A stretch of 64,000 nt of DNA from Klebsormidium nitens (GCA_000708835.1 DF237273.1:1-64000), one strand, 5' to 3'. Shown: positions 1 to 26,360, numbered from the stretch's first letter. A program made the numbers and translations. Notes: generated by a model not told the origin, from the sequence alone.

Positions 1-1330
1 GTTTGCGGCTCTTCCAGGGATGATCAGTCTTGTTCCAAAGTCAAAATCTGGGTCCTATGCGATGCTTGTGCTTATCATGGAAGGCAAGTTTTGACTGCTG
101 GTCGGCGTCATCAACTACAAGCTTCTGACAGGCATGATTGGTCTCGTTTTAAAAAGTCAAATTTTGGGCCTTATGCGATGAAGGAGCTTATATTGAAAGG
201 AACTTTTGACTGCTGGTGGGCGCCATCAACTACAAGCGTCCGACAGGAATGGTGGGTCTGGTTCCGGAGTCAAAAGTTCGGCCGTTAGGAGCTGCAATGC
301 TTTGATCTTGAAAGGAACTTTTGACCGCTCGGCTCAATAAACACAATATTCTCTGGAATTTTGCAGGGGATGGTCGACCTTGCCTACGAGTCAAAAGTTT
401 TGTCAGGAAAGTCTGATAAGCTTATACTCATGAGGGAAGTTCTGACTCCTTTGCGCAATCATGCACAACATTCCTTGGAATTCTGCAAGGGATGGTCGAC
501 CTTGCCTACGGGTCAAAACTTTTGCCATGAAAGCCTGAGATGCTTTATCTTGAGGGGAAGTTTTGACTGGACCGCACAACCGCTCACACTATGCTTCAAG
601 ATTCTTGGTGGAATGGCCGACCTTGCCTATGAGTCAAAGCTTCTGCAACGAAGTTCCGAGATGCTTTATTCTGGGAGAAAGTTTTGACTCAGACCGCACA
701 ATCGCACAGAACGACCAAAAATGATGGGTGTAATCAGCGGCTTGGCAACGAGTCAAAACTTCTGTCTGGAGATTCATAGAAGCTTATACCCACGAGGGAA
801 AATTGAAAGTCTGAGATGCTTATATTGGAAGGAAAGTTTTGACTGGTCGGCGCCATCAGTCACAGCGTGTCTCGGATCTAGAACGGAATGGCCGGCCTTG
901 CCTGCGAGTCAAAAGTTGGGCCGTTAGGAGCTGCTATGCTCATACTGCGAGGGGAAGTTTTGACTGGTCAGCGCCATCAGTCACAGCGTGTCTCGGATCT
1001 AGAACGGAATGGCCGGCCTTGCGTGGGAGTCAAAAGTTGGGCCATTAGGAGCTGCTATGCTCATACTACGAGGGGAAGTTTTGACTGGTTTGCGTTGTCA
1101 GTCACAGAGCATTTCCCGGAGATGAAAGGATTGGTCGGACTTGGCTGCGGGTCAAAAGTTGAGCCGTGGAAAGCTGGTATGCTGATGCTACGAGGGCAAC
1201 TTTTGGCTGCTGGTTGGCGGAGCGCCATCCATTACAAGCTTCTCGTAGGACCCGGATGGTCGGTCTTGTATCGAACTCAAAGCTTGGGGCCTGATGAAAC
1301 TGAGAGGAACTGCCAATATGACCAGAGTGC
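1..1330 (+). repeat. Array 1 of the ~120-bp double-hairpin repeat family (~11 units; begins before the window)
   Basis: AGTCAAAA-type arms start at about 39, 155, 268, 389, 511, 632, 751, 907, 1028, 1150 and 1274 (spacing mostly 113-124 bp). Each unit reads AGTCAAAA(G/C)TT..ATGCTTATACT..GAGGG(G/C)AAGTTTTGACT, then GGTCGGCGCCAT..variable..GATGGCCG(G/A)CCTTG. Confidence 0.95.
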
Positions 1331-1385
1331 TTGGATGAAACCGCTTTGAACTGATGCAATTCTAACGAGGCCCTTTTACTTGCAG

Positions 1386-3932
1386 GTATGGTCAAAAAGT
1401 GCAAATGCGTGACACAAAGAGCTCAAGTCTGAATCGTGCGCACACGGCATACTACAGAGCTCCACGAAGCAGTCCGATGGCCAGGGGACGTCTACCAGGC
1501 GCAAGGTCAGTCTTCACCAGCCACACATGGACACATCGGATACTTGCACTCGTCATCTGTAGCCTCCAGATACATGCAAACCTCGCCAATAGACCTTGCT
1601 TCAGCATGAATATCGACGTCGGCATCCGCTTCAGCTTCAGGGTCGACGGGGTGGAAGAGCAGGTCATGAAATTCAGCGACTATAGAGGCGAGGTCCTGAT
1701 GCTCAAAGCCCCCCTTGCTCATGAATCTTCGGAACAGATGAGCCCAATTCAGGTTGGTCGTCTTGCAGCATCTGCACATCTCGCGAAGATGGCGGATGGT
1801 GAGATTTGCTGCATCGTAACTGAGGTCACTGCCCTTTCTCTTTGCAGGAAGACGGCATCTTCAACTTTTCCGGCACCAACCTCATCTCGCACGGCCTCCT
1901 CTTGCGCAACCACTTTGCGGCGGCCCTGGGGGCGGCCCACAGCCTCAACTTTGAGGCGGGGGACATGGCGACGAGGTGCCTCGAGGGGCCGAACGTCCCT
2001 ACGCTGGACGACCGGGTGTTCGACTCGGCGATGCAGGCCTTCAACGACCTGGCGGCACGGTCTCAGATCCGTCACGTGTGCTCGCGCGTCGAGTGCGCGC
2101 ACCTCTACACGGGCGAGGTGGAGGCGGCCGAGGCGTAGGCCCGAATGGCTGGCAAACCCCCGAGGCCGGAGCGAACGGAGGGGCCGAGCTCTGAGCTGGC
2201 CACGTACGCTTTTGGGCGGGACAAGGTCATCACCTTTGATGGGACATTCTTTGCCAACTCGAGCGCGATGCGAGACTCCGGCACGAAAGCGTCCTTGCAC
2301 AGCATCTGCGAACCGGACCCGAAAGCGCCGAGGGTCTCTGGGGGCTTCACTCCTCTGAGCGTGGGCGGGGTACGACCTTCGGATGTGCCCTTGGAGGGAA
2401 TCGACTGCCCCTGGAAGTATAGGAACGGGCTGTCAGAGCTTAGACCAGCGGTGCGAGCTTTTGCGCTGAGGTGGTGCAACTTTCGCAAGGCTCCAGCGCA
2501 AGGGAACAACGCGCCTCTGAAGCTGGAGGAGTTCGTCGCCATGCGAGAGGGGCTTCCGGCGAACGTCGCCGCTCTGATCGACCTCGTGACGGAGTCGGGA
2601 GCTTGTGGCGATCCTGCCACGTGTGCGATTTGCAAGGCGGTGCCGCGGCGACCATGGATGGCAGGGTTCCTCAAGGACGGGCCCGTGGGAGCGACCGGCT
2701 GGTGCCCGACGCACTTTCAGCCGTACGGAGCCCTCCTCCACGCGCTGCTCATCCCCCGCTACTCGTGGGTTTTTGGGCACGTGGTCACGCTAAAGCTGCT
2801 GAGACACGTGCTGTTGGAGGGCCCTCTTTACGAGCGCGGACTGGCGTACCTCTCGAACGACGGCCCCATGGTGGCGGCCATCTTGCGCCTCCACCCCGTT
2901 GCCGGGGGGCTGTATGCCTTCCCACCGACGCTCCGTCCGCTCGTGCGCGACATCTATGCCACGAACCTCCTTTGCTTCGAGCCGAGCGCAAACCGGCCCG
3001 GTCCGTCCTCGCGATCGCCTCTGGCCGCTCTCCATGATGCTACCGAGCATCTGTGGACAATCGAAGCCGAGAGGCTGAGGCTCATGGGCCAGCTTGAGGC
3101 GGTCGCAATGGAGTACGTGGAGCGGCGAGGGGCGGCACTCAAGAGGGTCGCCAACTCGCTCCTGTTTGAGCTGGAGGTTCGCGAACCCTCGTGCTACAGC
3201 GGCGAAGAGTTCCTTCGAGCGCCATCGGCCGCTTATGAGGAGCGGGTCGGCGCCGTTTCGGTCTACTCTTTTCACCCCCTGCTGTATGGGCGGCCGCAGT
3301 TCACGGATTGGGAGGACGCTTCGGGTCGCGGGAGAAAGGGTTCCGAGGAGCGGCTCATGCAGCACTGCAGTGCTCCAAACCGCCGCTCGTCAAAGGGGCG
3401 CGCTGGGGTGTTCATCGCATGCTGTCAGGATCGAGCGCCCTTGGGGTACCACTGGCTGAAGGGCGGTGAGAGCGTCTCGGACCTTGGGACGGTGCTCCTG
3501 ACGCGGTTCCCTTTCAAGACGCTGCGGGGCATGACCATCGTGGAGGACGCCGCTTGCAACGCGCAGGAGTGGTTCTTGAACCGGGTGCCTCAACTGGCCA
3601 AGTTCATGCTGTTCGTCGTCGACCGCTTCCACTCGGGTCCCGTGAGCTGCGCACCGGCGGGGGCGAAGCGCTACGCGACGCATACGTGTGCGTCTACGCT
3701 TTTCATCGACTCCTTTCCGCAGCATGGCCACACAATCACAACCGCGTCGGAGGGCATCAATTCTGGGCTGAAGAGATGTGCAGCTAGCCTCCTGCAGATC
3801 ACGAGCATCAAGAGGTTGATAAGCCGTGTGACGACCATCCTTGACACGCTTTTCGAACGGTCGAAGTATGCTGTCTATTGGAGCGAGGCTAGCAATCCGT
3901 TGAGAGACTTGATCAGGCGGGCGCGAGGCTGA
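1386..3932 (+). pseudogene. KDZ (Kyakuja-Dileera-Zisupton) transposase, spliced, one in-frame TAG
   Basis: ORF 2145-3932 has VITFDGT, GVFIACC..LGYHWLKGGES, IVEDAAC..WFLNR.P, FVVDRFH..H.C and TTASEGINSGL, matching KDZ core motifs. Upstream ORF 1842-2138 (EDGIFNFSGTNLISHGLL, CxC5-like) is in the same frame, separated by TAG 2136-2138. A phase-0 GT-AG intron at 1753-1847 joins it to ORF 1399. The 5' end is uncertain. Confidence 0.78.
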
Positions 3933-3941
3933 CGTGCGGCC

Positions 3942-4615
3942 TTATTCCTCTATTACTCATTACCCACCGTCTCAAGTTCCATTCTCTTTGTACATTTGTC
4001 ATGTGGTGATGGAGGCTTTGCAAGAGGTTCCATATTCAAATAATCAATGGGTAATAGAGTAATAGGGTAACAGAGATGTGTGCTTGAGGCTTCTTCATGG
4101 GTACAGTCATGTGTGTGTGTGTGTGTTATAAGATAATGAAGGGGTAATAAGCTATTTGGTACTCAACGACTTCAGGAAGGTTTGTCTTTCTTGCTTTCTC
4201 GGGTCAATATGTGCCCCTCCTCATCCCTTCTCACCACCAACATATGACAGCTGGAGCAAGGGTAGAATCATGATGGAGCGATGCTGCTGATCTCCTGTAT
4301 TACTCGTTACTCTATTACCACTGTCTCAAGTTCCATTCTCTTTTGTACATTTGTCATGTGGTGATGGGCTTTAGAAGAGGTTCCATATTCAAATAATCAA
4401 TGGGTAATAGAGTAATAGAGTAATAGAGATGTGTGCTTGAGGCTTCTTCATGGGTACAGTCATGTGTGTGTGTGTGTGTGTTATAAGGTAATGAAGGGGT
4501 AATAAGCTATTTGGTACTCAACGACTTTAGGAAGATTTGACTTTCTTGCTTTCTCGAGTCAAACAATGTGCCCCTCCCCATCCCTTCTCACTACCCACTC
4601 ATGATGATTCGAGCA
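3942..4615. repeat. Tandem ~355-bp duplication; each copy has an inverted repeat of GTAATAG(A) iterons and a (GT)n tract
   Basis: 3942-~4260 aligns with 4298-~4615. TATTACTCGTTACTCTATTACC (4298-4319) pairs with GGTAATAGAGTAATAGAGTAATA (4403-4425); the first copy has the same arrangement at 3942-3965 and 4049-4070. Confidence 0.93.
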
Positions 4616-7333
4616 AAACGAGCACTTTTGCTCTGCGGCGGATTGTCGCGACTCTTTTGACTCTTTTGAAGCATCAACAAGCTCCTGAAGAGCTTTGGAA
4701 TCTGTCATCCATGGCCCTTCTTCATCCTCGGTATAGTCGAGCCGTTGCCAGGTGTCTACCCATTCCACAGTCGAGCTCATAAGCTTGCCTTTATGGAGAG
4801 CCTCGCAGATAGCGCCCTGTGGGGCAAACCACCATCCCTTATGGGTTCGAACCCCCTGAATGGAGCGTGCCTGCGGTCGCATATTGAAAACGGCATTGAG
4901 AGAGCGCATCAAGACGTTGACGCCGGTATGGCGGTCTTCTTTGATGTCCATCTGATGCAGGAGCGTGTCATAAGTCCGCTTGATGTCTGTCGATGCTACC
5001 CACGTCTCCAAAGAAGGGTGAAAGCACCCGTTCTCGAGCAGCGCTTGCATCATATTGACGTGGGGTGGAATGGAGTGTTCTTTAAGGCCTTCCCCCCAAG
5101 TTGTGACTGGCATCTTCTGAGAATTCCAATTGGATATTTCAATGGATGATAGATATCGATGGAGGTGATATGCGGTCTCGGGTTTCTCCAACTGCTCCAC
5201 GAGCTCATCAAAGTATTGCTTGTTTCCCATCTTGGCATCTGAGACTTGCTGGCAAGAGTATCGGCGATCGTCTGCCTCTCGTTTGACAGACCAAAAGTTG
5301 TTTGTGGTGAAGACGATATTGCTTTTGTCATCCACGCTGATAGGGTCTTGGCCTTTGCGCTCCATACACGTCGTCTCCTGAGTGATTAGGGACTTTATCC
5401 GGTCGTTCATCCGATACGCTCCGCCCCAACTGCCACATTCGTCCAACACAATCAACAACCTGTTGGCTGCTAGTGAGTTGAATTTGCCAATGATCTTTTC
5501 GATTTCGTTGCAATACAAATAATATATGGCGCCAAGGATCATCCGTCCAAAAAAGTCCCACAATACAGACTTTCCGCACCCTTGCCCACTGCGAAACACG
5601 AGAGCGACACCAATCTTCCTCCAAGGCTTCTGAACGGCGTGCGCCATCCAACGAAGGTTGTAGTCAAACCGCTCCTTTGAGCCATCGCACAAGATGTTGC
5701 GGAGGTGCCACATGAGCTTTGGCATCTGTTCCTCGCACTTCACGAGCTCCGACTCCGTCAATCTGCGGTCGAGCGGTTTGAATTTCAGCCCGGAGAACAG
5801 ATTGAAATGTCGTGATGACCCCTTTGACGGGTCCGGCTCGAATACGATTCGATCGTATTCCCGGCGTTTAGGACTGCTCTCCCAGAATCTGGCAACCTCC
5901 TTGCTTTTTCCAGGTAGGCTCTGGAGTTGGAAATTCCCGCAGACCTCCAAAAAGTTGCGGCCGGACCGAGCGATGGTCTCCTGGGGCTGAAGCTGCCCAT
6001 TCTCGTCTCTCGAGTAGATCATTTCCAGATAAACAGCCTTTGTCGAGCGGACAACGGCAAAGTAATGGTTCATGATACGCAAATCGAGATCGAGCAAGTC
6101 CAGTTTTGCTTTCCTTGTTCGTACGTCATCTTCCTTTTTCTTCCTTTTCTCGTCGCTTTCATCCGTGGACGGCTCGAAGGGAAGAATGTAGCTCTCGCAA
6201 GTCTTGAAAAGTTCCCCTTCCGCTCTCAGAGGCAAACACTCGGGCCAAAAGTGAATGCCCAGCAGTTGCTTTGGTCGATCAATGCACCCTGGACTGAGAC
6301 AGCGGTACACAAGAATGCATCCGTTGCTCATGATGCTAAACTGGTTCGAATCGTGTTGATGACCATTTAAGCAAGTTCGCGTGCCGTTTGTTTTGAACTT
6401 TAGGATCTGCCACCCATTAGGGGTCATTTCTCCAACACCGTTGAACGTGCCGGTGTCGTCTTGCACCTTATCACGCAGCAACCTCTTGATCTCTTGGAGC
6501 GCGCCTTCCAATCCGGGCAGGGCCTCCGTGTTTTGCACATTTCCAAGAGGTGCTGATGACATCGATGTTGAGTTCTCAATAACAGGTGAGGTGGCATTCG
6601 AGTCATTCTCACGTGACATGTGCTTATTTGATGTCTCAATCTTGTCTGTTGCGGTCTGTTGAACGTGATCGTTGAGAAACTTTGCAAGCCAGAGAGGCAT
6701 GTCATGGCATGCATCAAAGCTTGGAGGCCCGTTGAGCCATTGGTATGTTGCAAGCTTTCCCTGATCCTTGACGTAGCTTGCGGGGTGAGCATAAACGACT
6801 CCTCCACCAGCTCGACCGTCAATTCTATAGACAGTGTTGCCAACCTTGATGGTCTCAAAGTTACGGGTGCATTTGAGGCCAGGCGAAGTCGCCTTGAAGT
6901 AGAAATGAAGCCCGCCAGAACCTGTTTGAGCTTTGAGTGTTTGGGGCTCGCCATGTTCCTTAACAAGACGGTTCCAGAGCTCGATTCCCGGCTTTTTGTT
7001 ATCTTTGTTGGACACATCAATATCAATCACAAACACCCGACTGGGACGTGTCAGGATCGCGACTCCATTGGCGTCCTTCCTCTGCCGCATTGCTTCATCG
7101 ATCGAATATTTCCACAATTCGGGCGTCGTGATGTGTGCGTACTTGTGTGGAAAGTCGGCACCTTTCGTACCCTCTTTTTCATTCCAGAACATGCGCACGG
7201 GAATTGCATAGAGCCCAACATTGGAGAGTCGTTGAATCTCGTCTGCAATGGCTCGGGGCCCTACGGGCCTGGGGACATGAGCGGCCTGAGGTTCTGAGAG
7301 GCTGGCCTGGGCGTCTGCCATTTCTTTGTACAT
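4559..7333 (-). CDS. Primase-polymerase (bifunctional Prim-Pol-like AEP) + Zn-binding linker + D5/NrS-1-like SF3 helicase, 924 aa, intronless
   Basis: VFVIDIDV and QTGSGGLHFYF primase motifs; C..GHQH...RCLSPGC; Walker A FRSGQGCGKS; Walker B IVLDEC; motif C FTTNN; ADDRRY. Confidence 0.9.
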   Translation of the reverse strand: MYKEMADAQASLSEPQAAHVPRPVGPRAIADEIQRLSNVGLYAIPVRMFWNEKEGTKGADFPHKYAHITTPELWKYSIDEAMRQRKDANGVAILTRPSRVFVIDIDVSNKDNKKPGIELWNRLVKEHGEPQTLKAQTGSGGLHFYFKATSPGLKCTRNFETIKVGNTVYRIDGRAGGGVVYAHPASYVKDQGKLATYQWLNGPPSFDACHDMPLWLAKFLNDHVQQTATDKIETSNKHMSRENDSNATSPVIENSTSMSSAPLGNVQNTEALPGLEGALQEIKRLLRDKVQDDTGTFNGVGEMTPNGWQILKFKTNGTRTCLNGHQHDSNQFSIMSNGCILVYRCLSPGCIDRPKQLLGIHFWPECLPLRAEGELFKTCESYILPFEPSTDESDEKRKKKEDDVRTRKAKLDLLDLDLRIMNHYFAVVRSTKAVYLEMIYSRDENGQLQPQETIARSGRNFLEVCGNFQLQSLPGKSKEVARFWESSPKRREYDRIVFEPDPSKGSSRHFNLFSGLKFKPLDRRLTESELVKCEEQMPKLMWHLRNILCDGSKERFDYNLRWMAHAVQKPWRKIGVALVFRSGQGCGKSVLWDFFGRMILGAIYYLYCNEIEKIIGKFNSLAANRLLIVLDECGSWGGAYRMNDRIKSLITQETTCMERKGQDPISVDDKSNIVFTTNNFWSVKREADDRRYSCQQVSDAKMGNKQYFDELVEQLEKPETAYHLHRYLSSIEISNWNSQKMPVTTWGEGLKEHSIPPHVNMMQALLENGCFHPSLETWVASTDIKRTYDTLLHQMDIKEDRHTGVNVLMRSLNAVFNMRPQARSIQGVRTHKGWWFAPQGAICEALHKGKLMSSTVEWVDTWQRLDYTEDEEGPWMTDSKALQELVDASKESKESRQSAAEQKCSFCSNHHEWVVRRDGEGHIV

Positions 7334-7369
7334 TCTGACAAGATTTTAAATGAGGCGTTTCAAACGCGC

Positions 7370-7774
7370 GTGCGTTCGGTCTCGGGTCGCGCTGATTTTC
7401 TTACCATGATATTAGTACTCAGCATGGAGTCGCATAATGAAAGCGCTTTGAATGATTGCTGCACTTGCAAAGCGTGCGAAACTATCAAGCAATTTTATGA
7501 AAAGCATCCGGATGCTCGAAAGACTTACACAAAAAGGTACTACTACAAACATAGAGATGCAATCTTATTGGCCCAAGCCTTTGAGCGCTACAAGAACGGG
7601 CATGCATGTCAACAGAAGACTTTAAAGCGCCTTTTCGATGCCGGCTTTCCGGTGAAGATTCCGTTTAATGCATGGCAGCACGATGATCATCAAATGGCGT
7701 CTTTAGACACGTCAGATGTGATCAAAGTGCCCTCGCTCCATTTGGGCGCATTCACAGGGATCCAAGTGTCTTGA
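7370..7774 (+). CDS. Small basic hypothetical protein of the viral type (true start may be a downstream ATG)
   Basis: Intronless ORF between the primase and recombinase genes with CCTCKAC and K/Y/R-rich KQFYEKHPDARKTYTKRYYYKHRDAIL. Confidence 0.5.
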   Translation: MRSVSGRADFLTMILVLSMESHNESALNDCCTCKACETIKQFYEKHPDARKTYTKRYYYKHRDAILLAQAFERYKNGHACQQKTLKRLFDAGFPVKIPFNAWQHDDHQMASLDTSDVIKVPSLHLGAFTGIQVS

Positions 7775-7810
7775 AGGCAGCTTCCCGGTGGCGAGCAAAT
7801 TGTAAACCGT

Positions 7811-8866
7811 TCAAAACTGTATCCGAGTTCCATCAGGATTGAATTTCTTCTCATATGTCCGCTGTGCCATAGCTGCCGTGTGCAACATGCTCCGCGCGAG
7901 GTCGTCGCGCTCGGCAATGCTCGGAGCATCTTTAAAGAGGTTGCTGACGCAAATTTTGCGAAGGAGACACGAACCCACACTCGCGTCCTTAAAAAGGCCC
8001 GTGCTACAAAACTTGGTCAGATAGTTTCGACTCATCGGTTTGTCGGGCGACTTAATCTGAGACAAGAGGTATTTTCTGGGAAAGACCTGAAGGCTTTCGG
8101 CAATGACATTGTTGCATCGGGTCGACATGTCTATCGAAGTGGGTCCGTGGTGCTTGACGGTCTTATAATCGTTCAATACCAAACGAAACTGATCTTGTGC
8201 AATCTCTAAGAGATAGTTTCCGGAACCGGACATGATCTCACGTACCTCGGCCGTTTTGATGTCCTTCAAGCGCACAATGGGGCAATCGCTGTAGTCATTG
8301 CGGATTGCTGGTTGATAGCTATAAAGGCACAGTATGAGGTGGCGAAAAAGCACAAATTTGTCCTCATCGGTCAATTCTTCGGGCCTCTTGTGCAGGATCT
8401 TACGGTTCACGTGCCTTTGCAGCTCCACTCGGCGATCACTTATCTGATTGAGTGTCTTCCAATTGGCCGCTTCCCGCTCTGTCAGCTGCTGGGGAGGAGG
8501 CTTCGCATCTTCCATGAGCTTACGAACCTCTATGTACCGCTTGTAATAGGCATCATAGAGCTGTTTATCGTCGGAGAATGCTTTGCGCACTAGAACCAAG
8601 AGCGGATTGATCCCAGTGGCCTGCATTGACAGCTTTGTGGAATATGTTTCCTGAAAGTACTTGATGATTCCGTCGGCATCCTTGATCCAATCGAAGCTGG
8701 TGAAGTCTCGTTGTCTTTTGAACCCTTGAAACAAGCGCACGACATGCTTCATATATTGTTGAATCGTCAGGTCCTTTCGAGTACCATCCTCGAACGCCGA
8801 GCGCAGCAGCCTTTCTCCCTGGGTTACGGTGATTATGCGTCTCGTGGTTTCAACAGACCCTTGCAT
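7811..8866 (-). CDS. Tyrosine recombinase/integrase, 351 aa
   Basis: Catalytic residues in the expected order: PAIRNDY (R), DYKTVKHHG (K), CLLRKI (HxxR-like), LARSMLHT (H/W), AQRTY (Y). Confidence 0.88.
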   Translation of the reverse strand: MQGSVETTRRIITVTQGERLLRSAFEDGTRKDLTIQQYMKHVVRLFQGFKRQRDFTSFDWIKDADGIIKYFQETYSTKLSMQATGINPLLVLVRKAFSDDKQLYDAYYKRYIEVRKLMEDAKPPPQQLTEREAANWKTLNQISDRRVELQRHVNRKILHKRPEELTDEDKFVLFRHLILCLYSYQPAIRNDYSDCPIVRLKDIKTAEVREIMSGSGNYLLEIAQDQFRLVLNDYKTVKHHGPTSIDMSTRCNNVIAESLQVFPRKYLLSQIKSPDKPMSRNYLTKFCSTGLFKDASVGSCLLRKICVSNLFKDAPSIAERDDLARSMLHTAAMAQRTYEKKFNPDGTRIQF

Positions 8867-9133
8867 CTTTCACAATTTCTGGATACTCTCAAGAAAATTT
8901 TTGACCACCTCAAAGTCCCCAATTTCAGATACCATGAATGACTACGTTCAAAATCAATCTCACGAAATTGAGATGGGTAGCAGCTTTTAACGGTAAAAAC
9001 GGTTATGAGTGCGTGTAAAAGCCGCCTAAAAAGCGAGATGGCCACTCAATTTTCAGCTGAAATTATACTGGCGCTGGATACTGTGACTGGAAGAATACAA
9101 AAATGAAAGATGGTGACTTTTGGCGCATTCATG

Positions 9134-9682
9134 TTATCTGGGCGACGTGATTTTAGAGACTTCGTTAGCAATTCGAGCTTTCAGCGGGTTCGCAAGCATC
9201 TCGAGTCCCAAAACTGGCTCGTTGCTGTCCCAGATTACGCTTGGGGTGCAACGTGGTGATTCAAAAGACGCATTGCTATCCGTGTATTGAGGCAAAGCCA
9301 TCTTGCTTCCTCGATGCTCCGAGGTAGATCGCGATCGACGTTCAATGCGGCGGTTCTCATGATGAGCATATTTAGCATCTTTCAATGCTGTTCGCCAGCT
9401 TACAACTACGGAATATGGTCCATGGATTTCGAATTTGTCCCAGAAGGCGTCGAAGCCATCTTTTGAACGGGCACGAACCAGAGCTTTGGTTATATGCTTC
9501 AAATTATAGGGAGCAGCAAGTGCACGAAGGCCAGCAAGGGTGCCCACATCCAATATCGTATCATGCATGTTGAATTCCTTGTAGCAACGGATGATTCTAG
9601 TCTTGGCTGCGTTCAGAACCATTCTATCCATCTCTTCGATGGTTGCATTTGTTGATGGCCGGTATTTGAGAACAATATCCAT
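9134..9682 (-). CDS. Hypothetical protein, 182 aa, in the recombinase/primase module
   Basis: ATG-initiated intronless ORF, co-oriented with the recombinase; no recognised motif. Confidence 0.5.
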   Translation of the reverse strand: MDIVLKYRPSTNATIEEMDRMVLNAAKTRIIRCYKEFNMHDTILDVGTLAGLRALAAPYNLKHITKALVRARSKDGFDAFWDKFEIHGPYSVVVSWRTALKDAKYAHHENRRIERRSRSTSEHRGSKMALPQYTDSNASFESPRCTPSVIWDSNEPVLGLEMLANPLKARIANEVSKITSPR

Positions 9683-9923
9683 ACCTTGCTAAGGTTTCAA
9701 TAAAAAAGTGGATAATCAAAGCGTTCTTCGAATTATGGTGTGACGCCCGCCCTAAATCGAGCGAGCGCCAAAAAGCCTGTTGTGGTAAGTCTCATGGGCA
9801 CCGCCCTTCAAAAGTTCATGACCGAGTTTTGAGTACAATCTGGCAGATTGTGTCGTCAAAAGTAGGATCCGAGCATGCACCGGAGCCCTCAATCGGAATG
9901 CCCACAATCTCCACCGTAAAGCC

Positions 9924-10300: not shown

Positions 10301-10439
10301 GGATGAACAACTTCGAGCTATGTGCTAGATTATCACACCGACAAAGCGCTCGGCATGGTTGAGGGGGCGCCCGTCGACTTGCACCATCGTGATATACAAA
10401 GAAGCCTTCACAACAACGCAAATTGACGGCTCCGAGCCG

Positions 10440-11959: not shown

Positions 11960-12055
11960 CCTTATGCAAGAGACACTTCTTTTTAAGGCAGGGAGAAGGC
12001 AGGGCAATGCAAGAGACACTTCTTTTCAAGCAGGGAGAAGGCAGGGCAAAGCTGA
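11960..12055. repeat. Short tandem duplication (AGAGACACTTCTTTT..GCAGGGAGAAGGCAGGGCAA x2) in a predicted intron
   Basis: Two ~42-bp copies visible directly. Confidence 0.85.
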
Positions 12056-15470: not shown

Positions 15471-18293
15471 GTGGCGAACAGATCCTACATTCGACCCTGA
15501 GGTATCTTGCATCATCTCACGACGCTAGTGACGGAAGCTGATTTGAAAGCATAAACTACGGCGACTCGGTTCCGATCTCGACCTTCCAGCCTGGGGCCTC
15601 CGAAAACGTACTTCATGGGACCGTTGCTCGGAAGGTGGGAAATCAAATCAAAGTGATTCCCGTTGCCCGTGATGGCTCACCTGCAGGTGGCGGAGTGGCA
15701 CTTGTAGAATGCCACCCCCGGCCGGGACCGGCGGTAGAGCAGGTACGTGTTGTTGTTGCCCGGGGACGTGTGCGGACGGCCAGCGAGGAGACATGTGGGC
15801 TCCGGCACGTCGAAGTGGACCGTGAAGACCCCCGAGCCGACGACGTGAACGCGCGCGAGCGTAGCGCCGGGGTGCTCCTGCTGATAGTACTCCACCAGCA
15901 CGCGCTGCTCCTGCTCGCCCAGGTCCGCCCGATTCTGCCCGCCATCTTCCGGGAGGCCCGCATCTCTCACGCGCATCGTGGGGCGCTGCGGCCGCGACAA
16001 CGTGGGGGCGTGCTGCTGGAGGTACGCCTCGAGGCGCGCCGCGTCTAGCTGGGCGCAGCACTGCAGCTCCGCAGCCGAATAAAGCCCCGCGAGGTGGTCC
16101 ACGATGAGCTCCGAGCTGCCCTCGCTCGGCTCGAGGACGCGGTCGCTCCCCTTTTTGCTCGACCACAGCATACGCCAATTCTGGAACTTGGAGTAGACCG
16201 TGCCGTCCCAGATCAGCTTCGGGCGGCCCCGCTGATCCTCCGTCCAGACGAACTCGGCGCTGCGCGCCAGATGGGGGGGCGGGTTCTTCTGGAAGTGGTC
16301 GAACGCTTTTGCAAACAGGCTCCGCGCTCGGCTATCCTCCAGGTAAAACCCCTTGAGCACCCCGTGGACGCTGTACCTGAACCCCCCCGCGACTGCCCCA
16401 TGCGCCGTGCTCTCCTCGAACCGGACCGCCTCTCCCAACACTCCCAGAACCGCCTCCAGAAACCCATCCCTCAGCCGCTCAAAGTGCTGCTTCCGCTCAG
16501 CAAAATCTGCATCCCGCGCCCCGACCGCCTCCTCGGAGTCGCCCGCGCACACGCTCAAAGGCACGTAGTAGTCCAGGCCGAAGTAGAGCAGCGAAGGTGT
16601 CTCTTCGAGCAGACACTCGTACCGGTGCTTCCTCTGGCCCCTGAGGCGTGCGCAGTAAGCCAGCAGCGCAGGGACGTCCGGGAAGCTGGTGAACATCTTC
16701 GCAGCGGAATCTCGCGCGGAGTCAGCGGCGACGACGATGCCGTGGCCGTGGAGGGTCTTCCAAGCCACGGCGAGATCCTTGGGGCCCCGGCCGGTCGGAC
16801 TCTCCTTGCTCTTGAACCACTGCTGACCGTAGACCGCCGTCGTGTGCCTCTGCAGAGTTGGACAAATGCCATCAGGAAAATGTGCGGCTGATCGTGCGAC
16901 TGATAGAGCTTCGGCTTTCAAGTGTGGTCCTCAAGCTCAGTGAGCCCGTGCAGAGTTGCAACGACAGATCTAAGTCAAACTCTCGGACTCAGATTGTCAA
17001 CCAGGGGAGCGATAGTCGTCCGAAAGCAGGGATGGTATGCACAAGTGCTGCAAGAGAGACCCGTGTCTGCCCGTGCTTAATCCTCAGGCAGCGAGGTATT
17101 TCTCGGAGGAAATGAAGCATCTCCTTTCTATGCCGCTTTCATTTAGTGTTCTCGCAGCCGAGAAAAGGTCGATGTACACCAAACTCGAGTGCTCAAAAGA
17201 CCATGTGGCCGCTTTAGACCAAAGGTAGATTACCGATTCGAAGTCGCGCACGCTCTCACCAGCAGACTGCCAACGGAGTCTTGATCTCTGGTTGGAGCTA
17301 GCTCGGTCGTATCCTGCCTGGCCTCCAACCCCATTTCCTGCACGCAAACGCAGACCTTTATGAGCACGTGCGCAAAAGACGGACCTGGAGATCCTCTCGT
17401 CCGCGGCGTCGAAACTAGACAACGCCCAGCAGTACAAGCGTGCAACTTTCCGATTGCGGACGATGTGATGCAAAAGCAAGGGCGGCCATCACACCTGGCA
17501 GCGCGCTGACCAGCAGCCAGGCTGATCTTGATTTCATCTGGCATGCTTGCCGAATTTAACGACCAGATCCGATCGGTCTGGTCGACATTTGGACGAACAG
17601 CGCGACTTCTTGTCGCACGCAAGACCTTTGGAATAGCTTCCAACATCATTCAGTAAGAGTGATCCTCTCTGAGAGTTGGGACATGAAATCCGGATGCTTA
17701 CCTGTACAATCGGAGCCCCGCCCACAGGATGATGCTCGGCAAGCTCCCCGGCGGGAGGCTCCGGGTTCTCCTCGGGCGCATCCTGACAATAGACTCTTGC
17801 CGCGTGAAGTTCCTGGGCACATGCACATGATGACATGATTGAAAGAGTGGAGCCTGCAAAAACCCTAATCATGAAGATATTGTTTGTGAACCAACTTTCA
17901 GAAGAGGAGAAGCGGGCGCGCGCCTCCGCGAATCGCGCTCCAGAGGCCCGGCACTTCCTACTAGACATGAGAACCGGGTTCTGAAGTGCTCGAGTTGAAC
18001 CAGAGGTGTTGCTTCTCACCCCTCACTGATTGCACACACGCAGCTGGCACCGGACTTCTCTTTCGAAGGCAATATTACACGTGTGGCAGCGCCCGAGTTG
18101 TAATGCAGCTTACCGTTTCGCACGGGCTTCCGGTCCTCTAGAACCGGAGGGCGCTGGGGAGCTCTCCCTGCTCGAGGAGGCCCTTTTTCTGTCCGCGACC
18201 TCCTGCACACAAGAACCAGGCGCTCGCTCGATTCAAGAAGGGTGTCACACAGGCTTAGGGGGAACGCTTTGGCACTCCAAGGGCATCGGAATC

Positions 18294-18756
18294 ATGGGCT
18301 ACGACACCAGATCATGGCCGCTTCGCCTTTTCTCGCTCTCTGACCGCCGAAGAGTGCGCGATTTTGGAAGCAGTGCACGACCACCGCCACGAGGACGACC
18401 TGGAGCTACCTTATGCGGCTAACGAGGAGCGCCCGGTCACCATCGAGCGAGAGGTGATCAAGCCCTTGTACGTGGGCGAGGGCTTCGACTACCTCACGAG
18501 AAAGTACCCCTCCTTCTATTGCCAGTGGACGGTCTCACCCAACAAGCGCGCTCTACTTTGGGACAAGGGGGAGAAGTTTTACAGTTATGTGGGCTGGCTC
18601 GAGTACCTCATCTCCCACATTTTTGAGGTATGGGGGTTACAGCTCAGCGGGACCATCACATGGAAGGGGACGAATCGGGGCGACAGGGGTTCGATCACGG
18701 TCGAGGGCAACAAGATCATGGTCAAGATGCCTCTGGCCCGAGTGGACTCACCGTAG
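18294..18756 (+). pseudogene. Phage/giant-virus-type small conserved protein with an early frameshift
   Basis: MGYDTR-(frameshift at ~18312)-HGRFAFSRSLT...YCQWTV...WDKGEKFYSYVGWLEYLISHIF..WGLQLSGTITWKG..RGDRGSITVEGN resembles a family I recall from phages and nucleocytoviruses (MGY.T.F.G.F, WDGGEKFY.Y..WL.YLI); not searched. Confidence 0.65.
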
Positions 18757-18894
18757 GTGCCGGCTCTGTAGCACCGGGATGGGGGCCGCTCGCAGGATGC
18801 GGGTCGCTGCTGGCGGGGCCCGGGTCCTGCAAGTGCGCAAGGGACTTTGTGAAGAGCCATCAATCGGGACGCTCTAAATGAAGCAGCGTTCATT

Positions 18895-19215
18895 CTCGCC
18901 GCCAGCAGTCAAAAGTTCCTCTCAGTATAAGCACGCTCTTCGTAAACAGGCCCCGAGTTTTGACTCCGAGATGAGGTCAACCATCCTTGTTTGAGAAGCT
19001 TGCGATTGATGGCGCCGCCCGGCAGTCAAAAGTTCCTTTCACAATAAGCACGTTTATTGCACAAGGCCCAAGGTTTTTGACTCTGACATGAGACCGCCAG
19101 ACTATCCCACTCAAGCGTTTGAACAAAAGCGCAGGTCAGTCAAAACTTGCCTCTCAGTCTAAGCATATCAGCTTTCAGTGGCGCACCTTTTGACTTGCAG
19201 GCAAGTCCGTCCATC
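18895..19215 (-). repeat. Array 4 of the ~120-bp repeat family (3 units)
   Basis: Arms at about 18907, 19024 and 19138. Confidence 0.92.
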
Positions 19216-19222
19216 CTGTCCA

Positions 19223-22200
19223 CTACTGTTGAAGCTTGAGCCGGGACCAACGAGGAGCGTATGCGACCCAGAACTCGGTGCTCACCCGACTGATAGTCTG
19301 GGGTCGCAGACGCGGCACGATCATGCACAGATTTGTAAACTCCTCCCCAAAGTCCGATTCGTCGAAGCCGCCATCGTCTTCGGGTTCTAGCGGACCGTCG
19401 GAGCTAGCGCTGGCGTCAGGCACGAGCACATCGCCCCCCGGGTGCTGCACCTCCTCCTCCGACCCAGCAGCACCGCTCCGCCTTGCCGAAACGCTGCCGT
19501 TCTCACCCGAGGACTCCGATGATGGGAGCAGCACCCGACGGCGCCGCCTGGTTTGTGGAGAGGGGGTTGCCTCATCACAAACCCGCCGCTTTCGGAGCTG
19601 CTGATGAGCCTGGGCAGCCGCCCACCGCCCGTTGCTTGCGGAAGAACCCTGCGAAGGGCTGCCCTCCTCGGCTGAGCACTTCGACCGGAGAGGCAGGAGA
19701 CGGGCTCCCGGCTTGAAGCCCTGAGCCTGAAGCTGAGAAACGTCCAACTCGGAGTCGGATTCCCTGGCGGCACGAAACCTGCCTTGCGCAACCACCGGAT
19801 TCTCTTCGTCTTGACTTCCGTCGTCGATCATGAGGCGATCTTGGGATGTCTCCACGTCCCCAGATTCGCCCACGCTCTCAAACTCCGCCCCCTCAATGTC
19901 CTCGCCTTCTTCTTCAGATCCTGATCGCCCAAACCCGGACTCACTGGCCGCACTCGTCGCCGACCGCTGGTTGCCGCCGCTTTTCTGGACGAAGGATGGG
20001 CCTTTTGTCAGAAATTAATCAAGAGACGTCTTCTGCAAATCAGCGCCGAGGGCATCCCGTGGAAGCAAGGCAGGCCGTCATCACGAATTGTTGACGTGGT
20101 CCAAAAGCTTCAGATAGAACCTCAAATGTTTCTTGCAGCGCGTGGACTCTGACCATCTGGAGCCAACCCAATCTGAAAAGGTCTCGCTAAAGAGACATGC
20201 GAGGAACAACGAACGAGTTCAACACATTCCTTGCTGGGAACGCATCACAACCACTCAAAATCTCAGCAACACTAGCATTGCCGAATCGCAGTTCTGGCCC
20301 TTGAAGCAGATCTCAAACGAACCGCTTTCGAGATGCGTACAACTTATACAGCTTGAACGAGCTCAGATCAATCCATAGTTCTCACCTCTGCTGTGGCGCC
20401 GCAACCCTTGACTGCAGCGCCAGCTGTCTCTCCCAATGAAGTGGACAGCCGGTCCTCTTCGTCTGCTCTGTTGTCTTCCACCTTGAAAGACGATGAGTGA
20501 CATTCGATCAGAACATGCGGAGCACATTCTTACCACAATTTCAATAAGCATACAACCAGCGTATGCAAACCAGTGTCGCAGCACTCCACCCTACTCACAG
20601 TCTTAAAATACGAAGTGCAATGCAAAGCAAACGAACGTCGCCAATGCGCAACAGATGATCAATGCAAAAGGCTGGCCCTCACATATCATCCAAGGTGATA
20701 ATGAAGACCTACTTTGGCACAATTTGCAGCACGACATTTTTCGAAAGCCAGCCCCTCGAGTCGCCTTAAAGACTCGGAATGCTTTGACTTCGTTAGTCGA
20801 GACGAAATGCATCCGTGGCAGCTTCCGATCGTGGTGCTAGAGCAAAGATACACATCTTACCAGGGCAGTCAGGAGGCCGTCTTCTATCCTGTCCAAATGA
20901 CTGAGCTCTCTCTGGAGCAATTCCGCGTCCGCCCTCGGCATCTCTTCCGGGAACTCGGGCCTTTCGATGCCCCCTGTCACCACGCGGTCAGATGCTCGAG
21001 AGGCAATGCCTCCCTTCGAATCTGCAGGGCTGGGGTCCACCTGGAAAATGGAGAGGTGAACGGGTCAACTTACACGCATGAGCAGGTGCTCTGAGGAGTC
21101 ACCGCGCAGCTTTCTCGTTGGCACAGTTGTGGCAAAACTACTGTCCCTATCAATTGACTTGCAAAAACGCGATACCCATGTTTCCTGCAACAGCGATGAG
21201 TGGCCTGGGACGAGCATTGGAAACGTCTTCGATCACTGGATCATGGGCGCCTTAACTGTTATGCGACAAGTGTTAAGTGCTTACCTGCTCGTAAAGCTTC
21301 CCATTCTTCTGCCACTTCTCAAACTCCTCAGGAACAGCGCGCTGACCACATGCCGGCCGCCAGCTCTGTTCGACGTCCTGCACAACGGCCTCTCTTCTTA
21401 CCATCAGGTTTCGTCTGTGGGTTACGAGTTCAGATGACGCTACCATTCCAAAAGCAGAAAGAAGTGATGCGACCGCAGAACGGTCTGACAGGCTCAAGCA
21501 AAGCTTTGAAGCAAAGCACTGCACTCGTTGTTGTAAACTATCACAGAGCCGTGCTACGAGTTGTTGAGTCAGCATGGGCTCGTCCTCACCTCTCGAGAGG
21601 GCAAATTCACAAGCTGACGGCAAGGGCTGACATCAGGTGCAGGTGCGTCCTTATTCTCGTTTCCCTGTGATTGGAGCGCTGGCCCAGGATTGCTTTCGAC
21701 GCCGCCGATCAGCAGAAGCTTTGCTGCAAAATGAATGCCAATGATGGACAAGCGAGCCAAACCGACAGTTCAGGTCATGAAAGAAGCAGATGGCGTGCAC
21801 GCCTCTGTTGACGGACCACACCTTGTCAATAATAATAAAGAAACCCACTCTCAGCACTTTAAGGCCATGTGCAATGTGTGGTCCAGCAGACTGTCAGACC
21901 GGCTATCCGGTCACACTCTTTTCGGCCAAACAGAAGAAGGGCAGCTACAAGCAGCCCGCACCTATTTGATAGAGTGACTCACCATTGAGGAGCTTGCTCT
22001 TGGGGGTCGCATCCCACCTGAAGTTGTCATGCTGATATCCGTCGCATGCTGTGGAAGATAGGCAAACATATTGAGTTGGCACGTGAGTAGGCAAGGTTTG
22101 GTTTCAAGCTCGACAGGATTCTCTTTGAGAGACATCGTAGAGGTGGGGTTTCAGGATTAGGAGAGACCAAGCAAAGTACAAGCAGCAGAACAGTCCATTG

Positions 22201-24175
22201 GGAGTAAGATTGTGCAATGAGTCCGGGATCAACAAGCAAGAGTCAGCTTGCTCTTTGCCCGAGAAAACCTCACCATGCCTACTCCCGAGCTCTGCCTCCT
22301 CGTCAAGCGCCCGCGCTAGCTCTTTCTTCAACTTGAAAGCTTCACAGACACGTGCCCACTCTGGAAAAAAGGCACGATGCACATGTCTTTGCGATAAGCG
22401 CTTACATGCAGGAGAGTCGTTGGCTTGTCGACGACAGCCAGCATGCCTGCTCAGTCTCAAGATTTGCATTTGCAAACTTGCATGGTTGGACCAGGCAAGC
22501 TCTTTGCCAAATGATTGACGGCGCGCCGACACAGCGGTAGCCGCATAGAACTCACCTGCCCGGGCCTTCTCAATCTGGAAGCAGCGAGTTCTGACTGGGC
22601 GATGCGCACCGCAGAAGCACTTGAGGTTGCCCCCTTCCTTGCCTCCACGCAGCGCATAGGTCGCGGGGTTGCTGCATTCTCCGCAAAGGAGACCGTGTGG
22701 AACTGGAAGGGAAAGCACAAACAGTCGAAACCAGTTCGGAAAGCGTCACGCATGTAAAGTCCTGGTTGATTCATGCGTACCTTCTCATATATCCCCGGCC
22801 ATACACACAAGAGTCTTGTACAGTTGCAAACTCCTAGACCTAAGGCTCAGATGCCCTCCCCCAAAGCGCTGACTCCGACTCCCGCAAGGCCCTATTAAGG
22901 TGCTTCATCAAGATGGCCCTATTAAGGTGCTGCTGCTCACCCTTGGCCCCAAAGAGGTAGCTGGCCAGTAGCTCCTTTGCTTTCCTCGCTTTCCTGGAAG
23001 CGCCACCAGCTGGGGGGCGGGCCTGGCTCGTTGCCGCTGGGCTCGCGGCCGCCGGGCTTGCGGCAGTCCTGTGAGCTCCACGGGAGGCGCTTGCTGGTCG
23101 CTGCAGCCCCTCCATGTGGGCCTGCCTGATCGACGTCAAGACCTTCTCGAAGCCCTCTTGCAGGCCCGCGTCTGCAGTGCCCGCCAGCGCCTGGAGACCA
23201 GCCATCGCGGCATGCAGGCTCCCATCCCAGGCAGCCTTCGACCAGAGGAGGCCTGCAGACCCGAGCTCCTCTCGAGCGCGCTGGCACAGGGTTCCCGCCA
23301 CCTTCCGGAAGATGCGGTGGCCTCTCTTGGAGTAGGTGAGGAAGCCTCTGGCCGCGCTCGCCACGAGCGCTCTGATGGCCGCCGGCGGGAGAGCATCATC
23401 GCGGGGTGGGCCGCATGTGTCCTGCAAGGAAGCCAAGGGGGCACGATGCGTCAGACCTCATGTCATCTCGAAGGAGCGAGCAGACACTTCTTCATCGGGT
23501 GAAAGCCAGTGCACAACTCTGATGAGAAGTGCGGTTGAGGGCAGAATCGGGCCAAGGCCATTCAACCCATCATCCTGAGCATTGAGACCGACCAGTCAAA
23601 ACTTTCCCTTAAAGTATAAGCATTCCAGATTTTCACGACAAAACTTTTGACTCCCGCCCTGGCCCTCATCCTAACAGTACTGTAAGGGTTAGCGATGGGG
23701 CCAGTCAAATTTTGCCCCATGAATATAAGCATTCCAACCTTTGAAGGCAGGACTTTTGACTCGCATAGCTCCCAAGCCAATCCAAACCGGGATCCTGAAC
23801 AAGCGGGAGCGCCCACCAGTCAAAACTTCCCTGAAGAGTATAAGCATTCCAGACTTTCACGACAGAATTTTTGACTCCCGCCCTGGCCCACGCGTTGTGA
23901 GAGGTAGCGCTTGGGGCCGTCAAAATGTGCTCCATGAATATAAGCATTCCGGACTTTCAGGCAAAGTTTTTGACTTGCAGTCAACCTGGCCATTTATCCC
24001 ATGATCCTGAAGATCTTGTTAGCGGCATTCAAGACGCTGGCCTTACCCCAGTCCTCGCAGGACCAGCTTTTATCTCCGCGCCACTGTTCGCGCCGTAAAC
24101 CACCTCATGCATGGGGTGGGGCGGGGGGGTGCTCGAGTTGGGTGCGGCAGCAGATGAGCGCGTTGCTCCACTTCC
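19223..24175 (-). other. Run of exon-like segments of one or more uncharacterised spliced genes of the element
   Basis: Minus-strand AG/GT-bounded open segments near 24175-24047, 23425-22941, 22703-22557 (Cys motif), 21725-21589 (2A-like), ~21420-21290, 21040-20862, 20480-20390 and ~19990-19223 (acidic/basic low complexity). Connectivity is not established. Confidence 0.45.
23585..23997 (-). repeat. Array 5 of the ~120-bp repeat family (4 units, alternating dimer structure)
   Basis: Arms at about 23594, 23703, 23818 and 23918; unit 1 resembles unit 3 and unit 2 resembles unit 4. A GG|GTAAGG donor lies upstream at ~24046. Confidence 0.93.
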
Positions 24176-24269
24176 CCCCTGCATAGGGAGAGTTCGAGAT
24201 GACGACAGGGGAGGCACATGTGTCTCTGCTGCTGTCTGGCTGTGTGTCTGGCACGCAAAGCACTGGTCT

Positions 24270-24610
24270 ACGCACTTGAGCTTCCAAGCCAGAGCAAACT
24301 GTCGAGTCTGTGCGCCATGAACCTCACAAGAACCTCAGAAAAGTGCGCGGGGGGGCTGACAAGCTGCACCAGCTGGTCTAAGCATTCTAGCCTCCAAGCC
24401 AATGCAGATTGTCCAGTCTTTGCACCATGAAGCACAGAGGAAGCTGGGAAAGTGCCTCGCGGGGCCTGACAATCTGCACCAGCTGGTTTCGGCATTGAGC
24501 CTCCAAGCCAATGCAAATTGTCGGAGCTTTGCTCTGCTGACTGCAGAAGGACCAAGGAAAGTGCCTGGCAGAAGTTCGCAGTTTGCACCAGCTGGTCTAC
24601 GTAGCTGGTG
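24270..24610. repeat. Three ~109-bp tandem repeats (unrelated to the hairpin family)
   Basis: GCCTCCAAGCCA..GCA.A.TGTC and TGCACCAGCTGGT recur at ~109-bp intervals. Confidence 0.85.
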
Positions 24611-26360
24611 CATGTATTTTAGCTCCAAAAGTTGGTCTGTTAGATATGAGCTTCGATTGGTCTGTTCCACATGACTTGACTGTGTGGACCTCGCACGCAT
24701 TGGATATTTGAGCCATCAGCGTTGATGAGCTCACCCCAATGGAAGGCGGTGATCCAGCAGGACGAGTGCCTTCCTTGCCATCAGACAGCGAGGCTGCCGG
24801 CCCCTGCTGTTGTGGTGTGGTACTCTCTGCCATCTGCTGCAAGAAATGACCAGACAACACTCAGAGATCCCTCAAGGTTTGAGGACACATTGACGAGCAG
24901 TTGCTGACAGGAGAGGATTGAGGTAGGCCATCAGCTGAGATCAGTCCTGCTTTCAAAGCACAATCCTGCGAGCCAGCAGGTGTGCAGGCCACCCAGCTGC
25001 AAAAGCCTATTAATTTGGGCGCAAGGGCTTACCTTGAAAGTTGAAGCGCAGCGCGGCTGTCCACACACTCTGCTGTCGTCGCTGAGCGATCAACCTGCAC
25101 CAAGGCCATGAAACAATATTTGCATGCATGCATGCGGGCATGCAAGATGTATTGTCGGATGTGCCAAGGCATTTAAATGTTGCTAATTGCCAACACAATT
25201 GCACGCTGATGCTGCTGATGCAATAGGCATGCCTGGTCATGCTTCAACATGCCCAACAGCCTCCTTTTGCGAGCGCACAAAATCCAGAAACATCCACTTG
25301 AAGCAGACAGCAAAGGCCCTCAGGATTGTCAGAAAGAATGAGAGGCAAGCTGCTCTTACCTGGGCATGCCCAGACGCCTGCGTGCACGACGCGCTGACCG
25401 CGGACTGCCAGCTTCTGAGCTCGCTCCAGAGCTCCCTCCAGAAATGGACCCTTTGCTGTTTGGAGAAATGAAGTTGGGGACCATTGCACCCCATCAAAAC
25501 AAGCTCATTGGGCTGCCAAAGGATGCCAGAGAGCGCCATCGGGTGCCGCCGCCAACTGTGCCAAGTCATCAATTGCTGAATCAATGCTGACTCAAAGAAG
25601 CATCTTCTTGCTTCTAGAAGGACACCTGGCAGCAAATCCAGCGTTTTCAAGCTCCGCCGCGGGGCGCCAAAAGACGCCAGACCTTGCCAATGCCACCTGT
25701 CCCAGATGACCTGGCTGCTGAGTCACCTCTGGAACTCTCTCGAACGAAGCTCAAGGAAAGATAATGCCAGCATTCAATCAGCACTTGAAAGCTGATACGC
25801 GCCGTGATGCGCCGCCATGACTCACTCACACGAGCTCAAGGCTGGAGAAAACTCTACGATCAACCCTGGCTGCTACCCTTGCTTTAAGAGCCTCAGTCTG
25901 TCTGCTTGAATATGCAGAGAACTCGGACTTCAACTGGGTGGGAACGGTCTGCAACAGCGTGGTAATGGTGAGCCGGCCCACAGAGCTAGGTGCCAGGCCC
26001 TAATGGGCAGATAGCCATGCGAAGGGCCGGCGGAGTTGGGTGGGAATGTAAGGGACACGTGCGCCAACTGTGCTGCTTGCGGCCGACTCTGGCACGCAGG
26101 CCTAACGGAGTGCGTCAGGGTTTCAAGGTTTTAAAATCCTGTGCACTGAGTCTTCAAGCGACCGTCGGCGACCGTCCCTAGCCGTCGCAGATTCATCGCA
26201 CGGCCGAAAACTGCTGTGCGCGAGCAATTTGCAGCCACAGGTTAGTTAGGTACCCGACCCACGATTGATCACTCCAGCGGGGTTACCAAGGTCCGGGATC
26301 AGCAGTGCGAAATTAAGTCTCAGGTCTCTCGTCTCCTTGTCATTTGTATTGCTTCAAGTG

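Follow-up and report, generated by a model that had tools for sequence, protein, structure and literature searches.

Several systems are known in which transposases are accompanied by additional genes or are joined to viral replication genes. Giant KDZ transposons of algae reach 30.3 kb in Ectocarpus (PMC12477816) and 31.7 kb in Chlamydomonas, where Zisupton-3_cRei was described (PMC9977147), and the passages on these elements report nested inserts that are fixed, additional genes that are transcribed, and a transposase that is often broken. The fungal KDZ elements Kyakuja, Dileera, and Zisupton carry TET/JBP dioxygenase genes as cargo; KDZ target site duplications (TSDs) are 7 to 8 bp long, and terminal inverted repeats (TIRs) are found in Zisupton but not in Kyakuja (PMC12730594). 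Plavaka, which is unrelated to KDZ (PMC12730594), is associated in Amoebidium with giant repeats whose gene cluster of up to 50 kb includes tyrosine recombinase (YR) genes (PMC11244446). Polinton-like viruses (PLVs), as well as virophages, combine an OLV11-like YR with an AEP or a primpol-SF3 helicase (PMC4642659; PMC12220804; 10.64898/2026.10.13.758929), and in polisuviruses YRs are paired with AEP replicases, and DDE integrases with pPolB (10.64898/2026.10.13.758929). In Teratorn, piggyBac is fused with an alloherpesvirus in elements of 41 to 182 kb that have capsid and polymerase genes, TIRs, and demonstrated activity (PMC6431247). Among the top-ranked matches in the open-access literature, none described a KDZ element carrying a primase-helicase or YR cassette, and the two recent PLV and polisuvirus papers searched for the term "KDZ" did not mention it.

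Here, we analyzed a stretch of 64,000 nucleotides from Klebsormidium nitens (the window), the first 26 kb of which had been proposed in an earlier note to be a giant composite of a KDZ transposon and viral-type replication genes. The features are listed in Table 1. A core located at 1.8 to 8.9 kb consists of a KDZ exon lying tail-to-tail with a Prim-Pol/helicase gene, followed by a YR gene, and an arm of further genes extends to 26 kb. Our main reading, to which we give a probability of roughly 0.55, is that the locus is a giant KDZ transposon carrying a replication-integration cassette of the PLV type. The window copy has decayed. The locus resembles the giant KDZs of Ectocarpus and Chlamydomonas in its algal transposase of about 1300 aa, its size range, its extra transcribed genes, its fixed nested inserts, and its broken transposase; unlike it, those elements have defined ends and TSDs, and the sections describing them mention neither a primase-helicase nor a YR as cargo. 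It shares a KDZ transposase with cargo with the fungal elements, whose cargo is a dioxygenase and for which TSDs of 7 to 8 bp have been demonstrated. A DDE transposase beside a YR-containing cluster is also found in the Amoebidium repeats, but these clusters are intron-poor, tandem, and Plavaka-based, and the sections describing them name no primase-helicase. The YR and primase-SF3 helicase module and the YR fold near algal virus proteins are PLV- and virophage-like features, whereas here the cassette is paired with a KDZ DDE transposase and no capsid or packaging ATPase was detected in the window. Finally, Teratorn likewise joins a DDE transposon to viral replication genes including a primase and a helicase, but it retains a whole virus, TIRs, and shown activity. 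The core is a new form of known kinds, namely, the giant cargo KDZ and the transposon-virus fusion.

Table 1. Features of the K. nitens window, with positions counted from its first nucleotide
Feature	Position	Strand	Basis
Array 1, 11 units and 1 partial unit of the ~120-bp repeat	12-1295	+	Profile
Exon-like pieces without match to any fetched KDZ model	1385-1799	+	Sequence; no tblastn match
KDZ (CxC4-group) transposase catalytic exon	1848-3932	+	Pfam by transitivity, aligned motifs
Tandem pair of ~355-bp units (91% alike) where the KDZ and helicase genes converge	3943-4604		Sequence
Prim-Pol and SF3 (DUF5906) primase-helicase, 920 aa, intact	4559-7321	-	Pfam
Small 116-aa ORF located between the helicase and YR genes	7424-7774	+	ORF only
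Tyrosine recombinase (YR), 351 aa, intact	7811-8866	-	Predicted fold
Junction ORF between core and arm	9134-9676	-	No family
HIRAN-like ORF, weak	9924-10301	-	Pfam below cut-off; PHROG
Array 2, 7 units, separating the 3' end of UL9 from the HIRAN-like ORF	10437-11236	-	Profile
Spliced gene of AEP primase and UL9-like origin-binding helicase	11387-16930	-	Pfam, Atlas, frame
Predicted intron, 1056 bp, with a second degenerate repeat	13140-14195	-	Splice prediction
Predicted intron, 755 bp, with array 3	14926-15680	-	Splice prediction
Array 3, 4 units, in the 755-bp predicted intron	15013-15467		Profile
Phage-like ORF	18259-18756	+	phrog_38666, E 2.5e-16
Multi-copy gene of several exons, one of them Cys/His zinc-finger-like	18752-25611	-	Splice prediction
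Array 4, 3 units, inside a predicted intron of 459 bp	18881-19222	-	Profile
Array 5, 4 units, inside a predicted intron of 625 bp	23572-24003	-	Profile
Right edge of the multi-copy stretch	25950-26137		Depth 84 to 20.7, unique contig from 25950

The KDZ ORF had no match in a direct Pfam scan and was assigned by transitivity. Of 45 scanned homologs, drawn from 117 matches, 28 carried Pfam KDZ and/or CxC4, 7 were Ig/PKD-type chance matches, and 10 had no domain. CxC4 matched below the cut-off in four of the six long homologs, and the N-terminal part that would hold this cysteine cluster is absent from the window. The GxFxxxC, D, DRFH, and ExxNS motifs of the ORF aligned with those of the homologs, and we take D34, D470, and E538 of its 597 aa to be the catalytic D/D/E core. 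These results bear out the proposed KDZ transposase gene. The transposase of the window copy is nevertheless broken and non-autonomous: full-length homologs have 1250 to 1330 aa, their first 608 aa matched nothing in the window, the 5' exons of the gene are missing within the window, and the catalytic exon is interrupted by an in-frame stop at 2136-2138. The absent 608 aa and the stop had previously been overlooked. Within the region of the exon-like pieces upstream, sample X5 contains a related stretch (1470-1775, 44 differences). Long open KDZ homologs are present elsewhere, and the gene model KFL_003240015 is 100% identical to the window ORF.

The second core gene matched Pfam Prim-Pol and DUF5906 with E values of 3e-15 and 4e-19, and its ORF is open, with the DxD, H, Walker A/B, and motif C residues all kept. 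That the element may be self-replicating is inferred from these intact motifs. The YR had no Pfam family at E ≤ 1. Its structural model (pLDDT 84.9) matched the fold of Cre/Xer recombinases with an E value of 8e-6, which upholds its identification as a YR, and residues R190, K235, R303, H329, and Y338 fit what we take to be the YR signature, with the first His replaced by Cys. Starships carry a DUF3435 captain YR as their first gene and occur in Pezizomycotina; a Starship was rejected here, as this YR belongs to no Pfam family at that threshold and the host is an alga. The best fold matches of the YR were proteins of Tetraselmis virus 1 and of Heterosigma and Aureococcus viruses, and an Aureococcus virus protein has been named among OLV11-like recombinases (PMC4642659). 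The gene model KFL_003240020 joins the start of the window YR to the window helicase at 98 to 100% identity; with KFL_003240015, it identifies the window as K. nitens DNA close to a scaffold's start. The small ORF between the two genes matched neither Pfam nor PHROG, and the models P0055 and P0097 matched 7488-7781 at 60%, indicating that the small-ORF DNA adjoins the YR in another copy too. On the other side, the helicase stop lies inside the second ~355-bp copy, beside the KDZ 3' end, and this unit is also tandem in other copies ("goes back 334" joint, depth 283).

We next considered how often the core genes occur together, with same-contig linkage assigned by matching contig sizes or adjacent gene numbers. 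KDZ was found on the same contig as 15 of the 21 helicases of the window's DUF5906 subtype (window counted), and all three core genes were found together on 10 contigs. None of the seven helicases of the sister subtype (D5_N) was linked to KDZ, and three were linked to a YR; the contrast in KDZ linkage between the subtypes was significant with the window left out (Fisher p 0.002). In the K. nitens assembly, a KDZ model adjoins a helicase model on each of scaffolds 00324 (the window), 00274, 00892, 01383, and 01136. The sixth case is a single model, P0009, that passes from YR via the helicase into antisense KDZ, so that order and convergence are kept. The YR is fused N- to C-terminally to the helicase in six other gene models, five with the window's helicase subtype and one with the sister subtype. 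In a YR tree of 39 rows, including two long outgroup rows and leaving out shorter fragments, the KDZ-linked YRs fell outside a 22-row group (support 97/67) that held the D5_N-linked YRs. These linked copies differ from the window copy by 5 to 20% in KDZ and are therefore not assembly duplicates; across different assemblies, some contigs may represent the same insertion. Summed contig depth in run X1, which is not copy number, was 106 to 340 over 1335-9338 versus 13 to 22 for unique contigs. Among the best 40 rows, differences between copies were biased to third codon positions in 22 of 38 rows (p 0.002), including 7 of 8 for KDZ and 8 of 12 for YR, and the bias was absent from the helicase (1 of 5) and UL9 (1 of 4). 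The earlier note had named a pile-up of unrelated insertions as the outcome that would refute its proposal; because KDZ, Prim-Pol, and YR recur together on other contigs, such a pile-up is unlikely for the core.

Gene identities across the linked copies were correlated weakly or not at all (KDZ versus helicase, rho 0.39, p 0.053; helicase versus YR, rho 0.30, p 0.13; KDZ versus YR, rho -0.02), in comparisons whose power is reduced by partial and chimeric gene models, and co-divergence of the three genes appears to have no clear support. In length-limited searches, 20 of 35 KDZ contigs had no helicase and 36 of 46 YR contigs had no KDZ. Two of the partnerless KDZ genes, P0087 and P0092, are full length and mid-scaffold; four others (P0037, P0049, P0089, and P0094) are first on their scaffolds and cut at the 3' end and are therefore uninformative on a missing helicase. 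These observations bear on the main rival reading, itself unlikely, in which YR and Prim-Pol/SF3 form a capsid-less mobile element of their own that is integrated by its YR site-specifically at KDZ 3' ends, perhaps at the ~355-bp unit, and the association is one of nesting and not of fusion. The discordant identities of linked genes, with one linked helicase at 49% versus its KDZ at 80%, would fit such nesting, as would the 16 YR contigs of at least 20 kb without a KDZ match, the sister cassette (YR and Prim-Pol/D5_N) that lacks KDZ in seven of seven cases and has a YR in three, and a report that replicase modules may move alone (10.64898/2026.10.13.758929). However, only one subtype is linked, order and orientation are constant where visible, the end of the helicase ORF falls within the tandem unit beside the KDZ 3' end, and no att-like direct repeat was seen around the cassette.

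The DNA on both sides of the core carries a repeat of about 120 bp. We found 29 units and one partial unit in five arrays, all within 12-24003, in agreement with the proposal that one repeat family unites these genes. No unit was found in the other 40 kb of the window, and the reversed window gave 0 matches; because the profile was built from these same units, only the absence elsewhere counts as a test. Each unit contains inverted arms (GTCAAAA...TTTTGAC) spanning 56 to 57 bp end to end. The term "hr-like" used for these arrays is an analogy only. The unit was also considered as a loxP-like site and rejected, as its arms lie about 42 bp apart, unlike the 6- to 8-bp spacers of YR recombination sites. 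Arrays 3, 4, and 5 lie within predicted GT-AG introns, a location that had been overlooked. The repeat is common to the left flank of the core, on the KDZ side, and to the arm. Junctions of exon and array are also seen elsewhere: in X3, a contig from another copy passes from an AEP-UL9 exon into array 3, and further contigs from other copies connect a repeat unit with the 19.3-kb exon. The region of array 5 is covered in sample X5 as well. The repeat pattern had no match among viral contigs, and pattern searches of metagenome contigs gave 227 and 31 matches, none of which was confirmed.

The arm begins at a sharp change. Depth fell from that of the core to 23 at about 9.2 to 9.3 kb (23 over 9339-10005), and three X5 contigs diverge from the window sequence at 9090. 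The junction is spanned (9177-10118) by a contig unique to the window copy, and the junction ORF (Atlas best 0.77, model pLDDT 37.7) is unique to the window copy at the 85% identity level. The composite proposal stands for the recurrent Prim-Pol/SF3 and YR genes and not yet for a link to AEP-UL9, which the note had stressed; because the core-arm junction is unique to the window copy, the arm is only possibly part of the element. The HIRAN claim was only partly sustained, as the Pfam match was below the cut-off (E 4e-4) and a weak match to phrog_18569 was found (E 1.6e-5). The AEP was recognized by Atlas (0.98), with AEP_C962R on 12 to 37% of cluster members, and resembles Nucleocytoviricota AEP_C962R and herpes UL52 clusters; a PDB sequence search with it gave no match. 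The origin-binding domain matched Pfam Herpes_ori_bp (E 4e-13), and the two parts join in frame over two predicted GT-AG introns, so the locus does hold two primase-helicase systems, as had been claimed. A joint at 13145>14202 in X1 and X2 omits 1056 bp, exactly the intron length, in other copies. An in-frame stop at 12918-12920 (codon 734) interrupts AEP-UL9 and had also been overlooked.

Farther into the arm, the phage-like ORF stood up to the PHROG search and is repeated and tandem at other places (depth 141 to 189, "goes back 515" joint). The zinc-finger-like gene has 10 exons giving 558 codons with no stop. In run X6 (RNA by guess), splice-like joints occur at the predicted sites in paralogs of this gene, and a piece at 19285-19903 with 0 differences ends at the predicted donor 19285; the gene is probably transcribed. 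For 1300-10400, no RNA sample was listed, which speaks neither for nor against transcription there. Its exon at 22557-22700 is EsV-1-7-like by its Cys/His pattern only and had no Pfam match at E ≤ 1, so that this claim was not confirmed. The CpG ratio of the gene is 0.75, a host-like depletion, versus about 1.0 over 1.8 to 17 kb, and the gene shares a 25-bp upstream motif with a neighboring gene outside the stretch. Beyond the junction, most X1 bins had depths of 30 to 76, with 41 to 132 over 21.2 to 26.1 kb followed by a drop to 20.7 that fits the proposed right edge. Another repeated gene family follows at 28 to 32 kb, and to the right of 33 kb are presumably ordinary spliced genes (CUE-like, glucosyltransferase-like, and kinase), named from their translations. 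Sample X5 had no coverage over 32.3 to 36 kb.

The arm genes are repeated, array-bearing genes, and the odds that the arm belongs to the element are about even. It is quite unlikely that only the core is one repeated unit and that the arm is a pile-up, at a scaffold end rich in repeats, of repeated genes of separate origin together with a 120-bp repeat residing in introns. The depth steps between segments, the unique junction, the arrays in introns, the host-like appearance of the zinc-finger-like gene, and the further repeated family at 28 to 32 kb all favor such a pile-up, but the first 24 kb contain five of five arrays whereas 40 kb of host genes, which are rich in introns, contain none, one and the same repeat flanks both the KDZ exon and the genes of the arm, and other copies show the exon-array junctions again. 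No TIR or TSD was found, the left end being outside the window, and no inverted match above chance was found between 1-1850 and 24 to 33 kb. Kyakuja elements lack TIRs, and the absence of TIRs in the window therefore does not exclude KDZ. That the whole 26 kb is a single element is about an even bet.

It is very unlikely that the locus is a piece of a decayed endogenous giant virus or PLV with KDZ as a passenger, since, although the AEP is nearest to Nucleocytoviricota clusters, the YR fold is nearest to the algal virus proteins, and several NCLDV inserts are reported from K. flaccidum/nitens (PMC5294986), Pfam searches of ORFs of at least 100 aa and predicted exons in 1-28 kb (which divergent capsids may escape) found none of the core markers capsid (MCP), packaging (A32) ATPase, PolB, and VLTF3, viral contigs held no relatives of the helicase, the AEP, or the YR (single sequence and alignment), many spliceosomal introns are present, and the core is found again and again with KDZ beside it. 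The NCLDV-type content is confined to accessory-type genes (AEP-UL9 and HIRAN-like), and the locus is not a gene-dense, intron-poor block. The idea of a KDZ-mobilized endogenous virus was thus not supported among the scanned ORFs.

If the locus is a giant KDZ transposon, the transposon would have taken up a YR and Prim-Pol/SF3 cassette of the PLV kind. The KDZ enzyme from intact copies would cut and paste the whole element, and the window copy would need KDZ in trans. Priming and unwinding of the element's DNA may be the task of the Prim-Pol/helicase, and excision or resolution of circular forms that of the YR; replication of these forms would raise the copy number. The lower-copy arm, with its HIRAN-like, AEP-UL9, phage-like, and zinc-finger-like genes, would be likely variable cargo of the same element, and the 120-bp arrays would mark element DNA, possibly as protein-binding or exchange sites. 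A broader idea, which we hold to be doubtful, is that streptophyte algae harbor a family of capsid-less, self-synthesizing giant elements that have two integration systems, the KDZ DDE transposase and a YR of the algal-virus type, along with one or two primase-helicases, undergo circular excision and replication, swap arms via the palindromic 120-bp arrays, and ferry giant-virus genes into spliced, expressed algal genes.

If the main reading is true, the K. nitens locus would show that, besides the route taken by Teratorn, there is a second way for a cut-and-paste transposon to become joined to viral replication genes, in this case without a capsid and in an alga closely related to land plants. 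The locus would break the reported pairings of DDE with pPolB and of YR with primase and would provide a testable case of a replicase module outside a virus. It would also hint at how giant-virus genes amplify and gain introns in algal genomes.

Contigs assembled from the two DNA-type sequencing runs, X1 and X2, were compared with the window. Two contigs in each run skipped exactly the 1,056 bases of the predicted intron in the gene for the AEP primase and origin-binding (UL9-like) helicase, as if other copies were without this intron. It is possible that the intron is a recent gain through insertion. Three unrelated local tandem duplications are listed with the other features below.

Features of the window
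Feature	Position	Strand	Description
Predicted intron	13140-14195		1,056 bp; own degenerate repeat carrying GCCACGTCA
Repeated gene	28525-31870	-	First exon coiled-coil; NACHT/AAA-like ATPase
Local tandem duplication	11964-12049		43 bp
Local tandem duplication	24263-24596		110 bp
Local tandem duplication	26356-26750		199 bp
Inverted arms	53758-54356		43 bp, 91%, spaced ~510 bp; MITE-like
Inverted arms	62656-63558		61 bp, 87%; enclose 32-bp tandem repeat with TTAGGGTT; candidate small non-autonomous element

At 18372-19479, the best contigs of runs X1 and X2 differ from the window at 21 positions, compared with 0 for neighbouring unique contigs; either there is a second, almost identical copy or the window has errors here. 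In the multi-copy zinc-finger-like gene, one exon (21590-21723, minus strand) encodes LLLIGGVESNPGP, which resembles a 2A ribosome-skipping motif with the usual Asp replaced by Gly.

Summed contig depth, which is not a copy number, was 121-232 over the first exon of the repeated gene, which is presumably Crinkler-like. An exact 25-bp direct repeat (26029-26053 and 32267-32291) lies upstream of a different multi-copy minus-strand gene at each copy, and depth falls back to the single-copy level near both. This repeat is either a promoter motif or an element end.

Klebsormidium also has a sister cassette of a tyrosine recombinase (YR) and Prim-Pol/D5_N/SF3 (proteins P0015-P0020 and P0022; YRs P0059 and P0063). 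No KDZ gene was seen adjoining this cassette, which is possibly a free capsid-less element.
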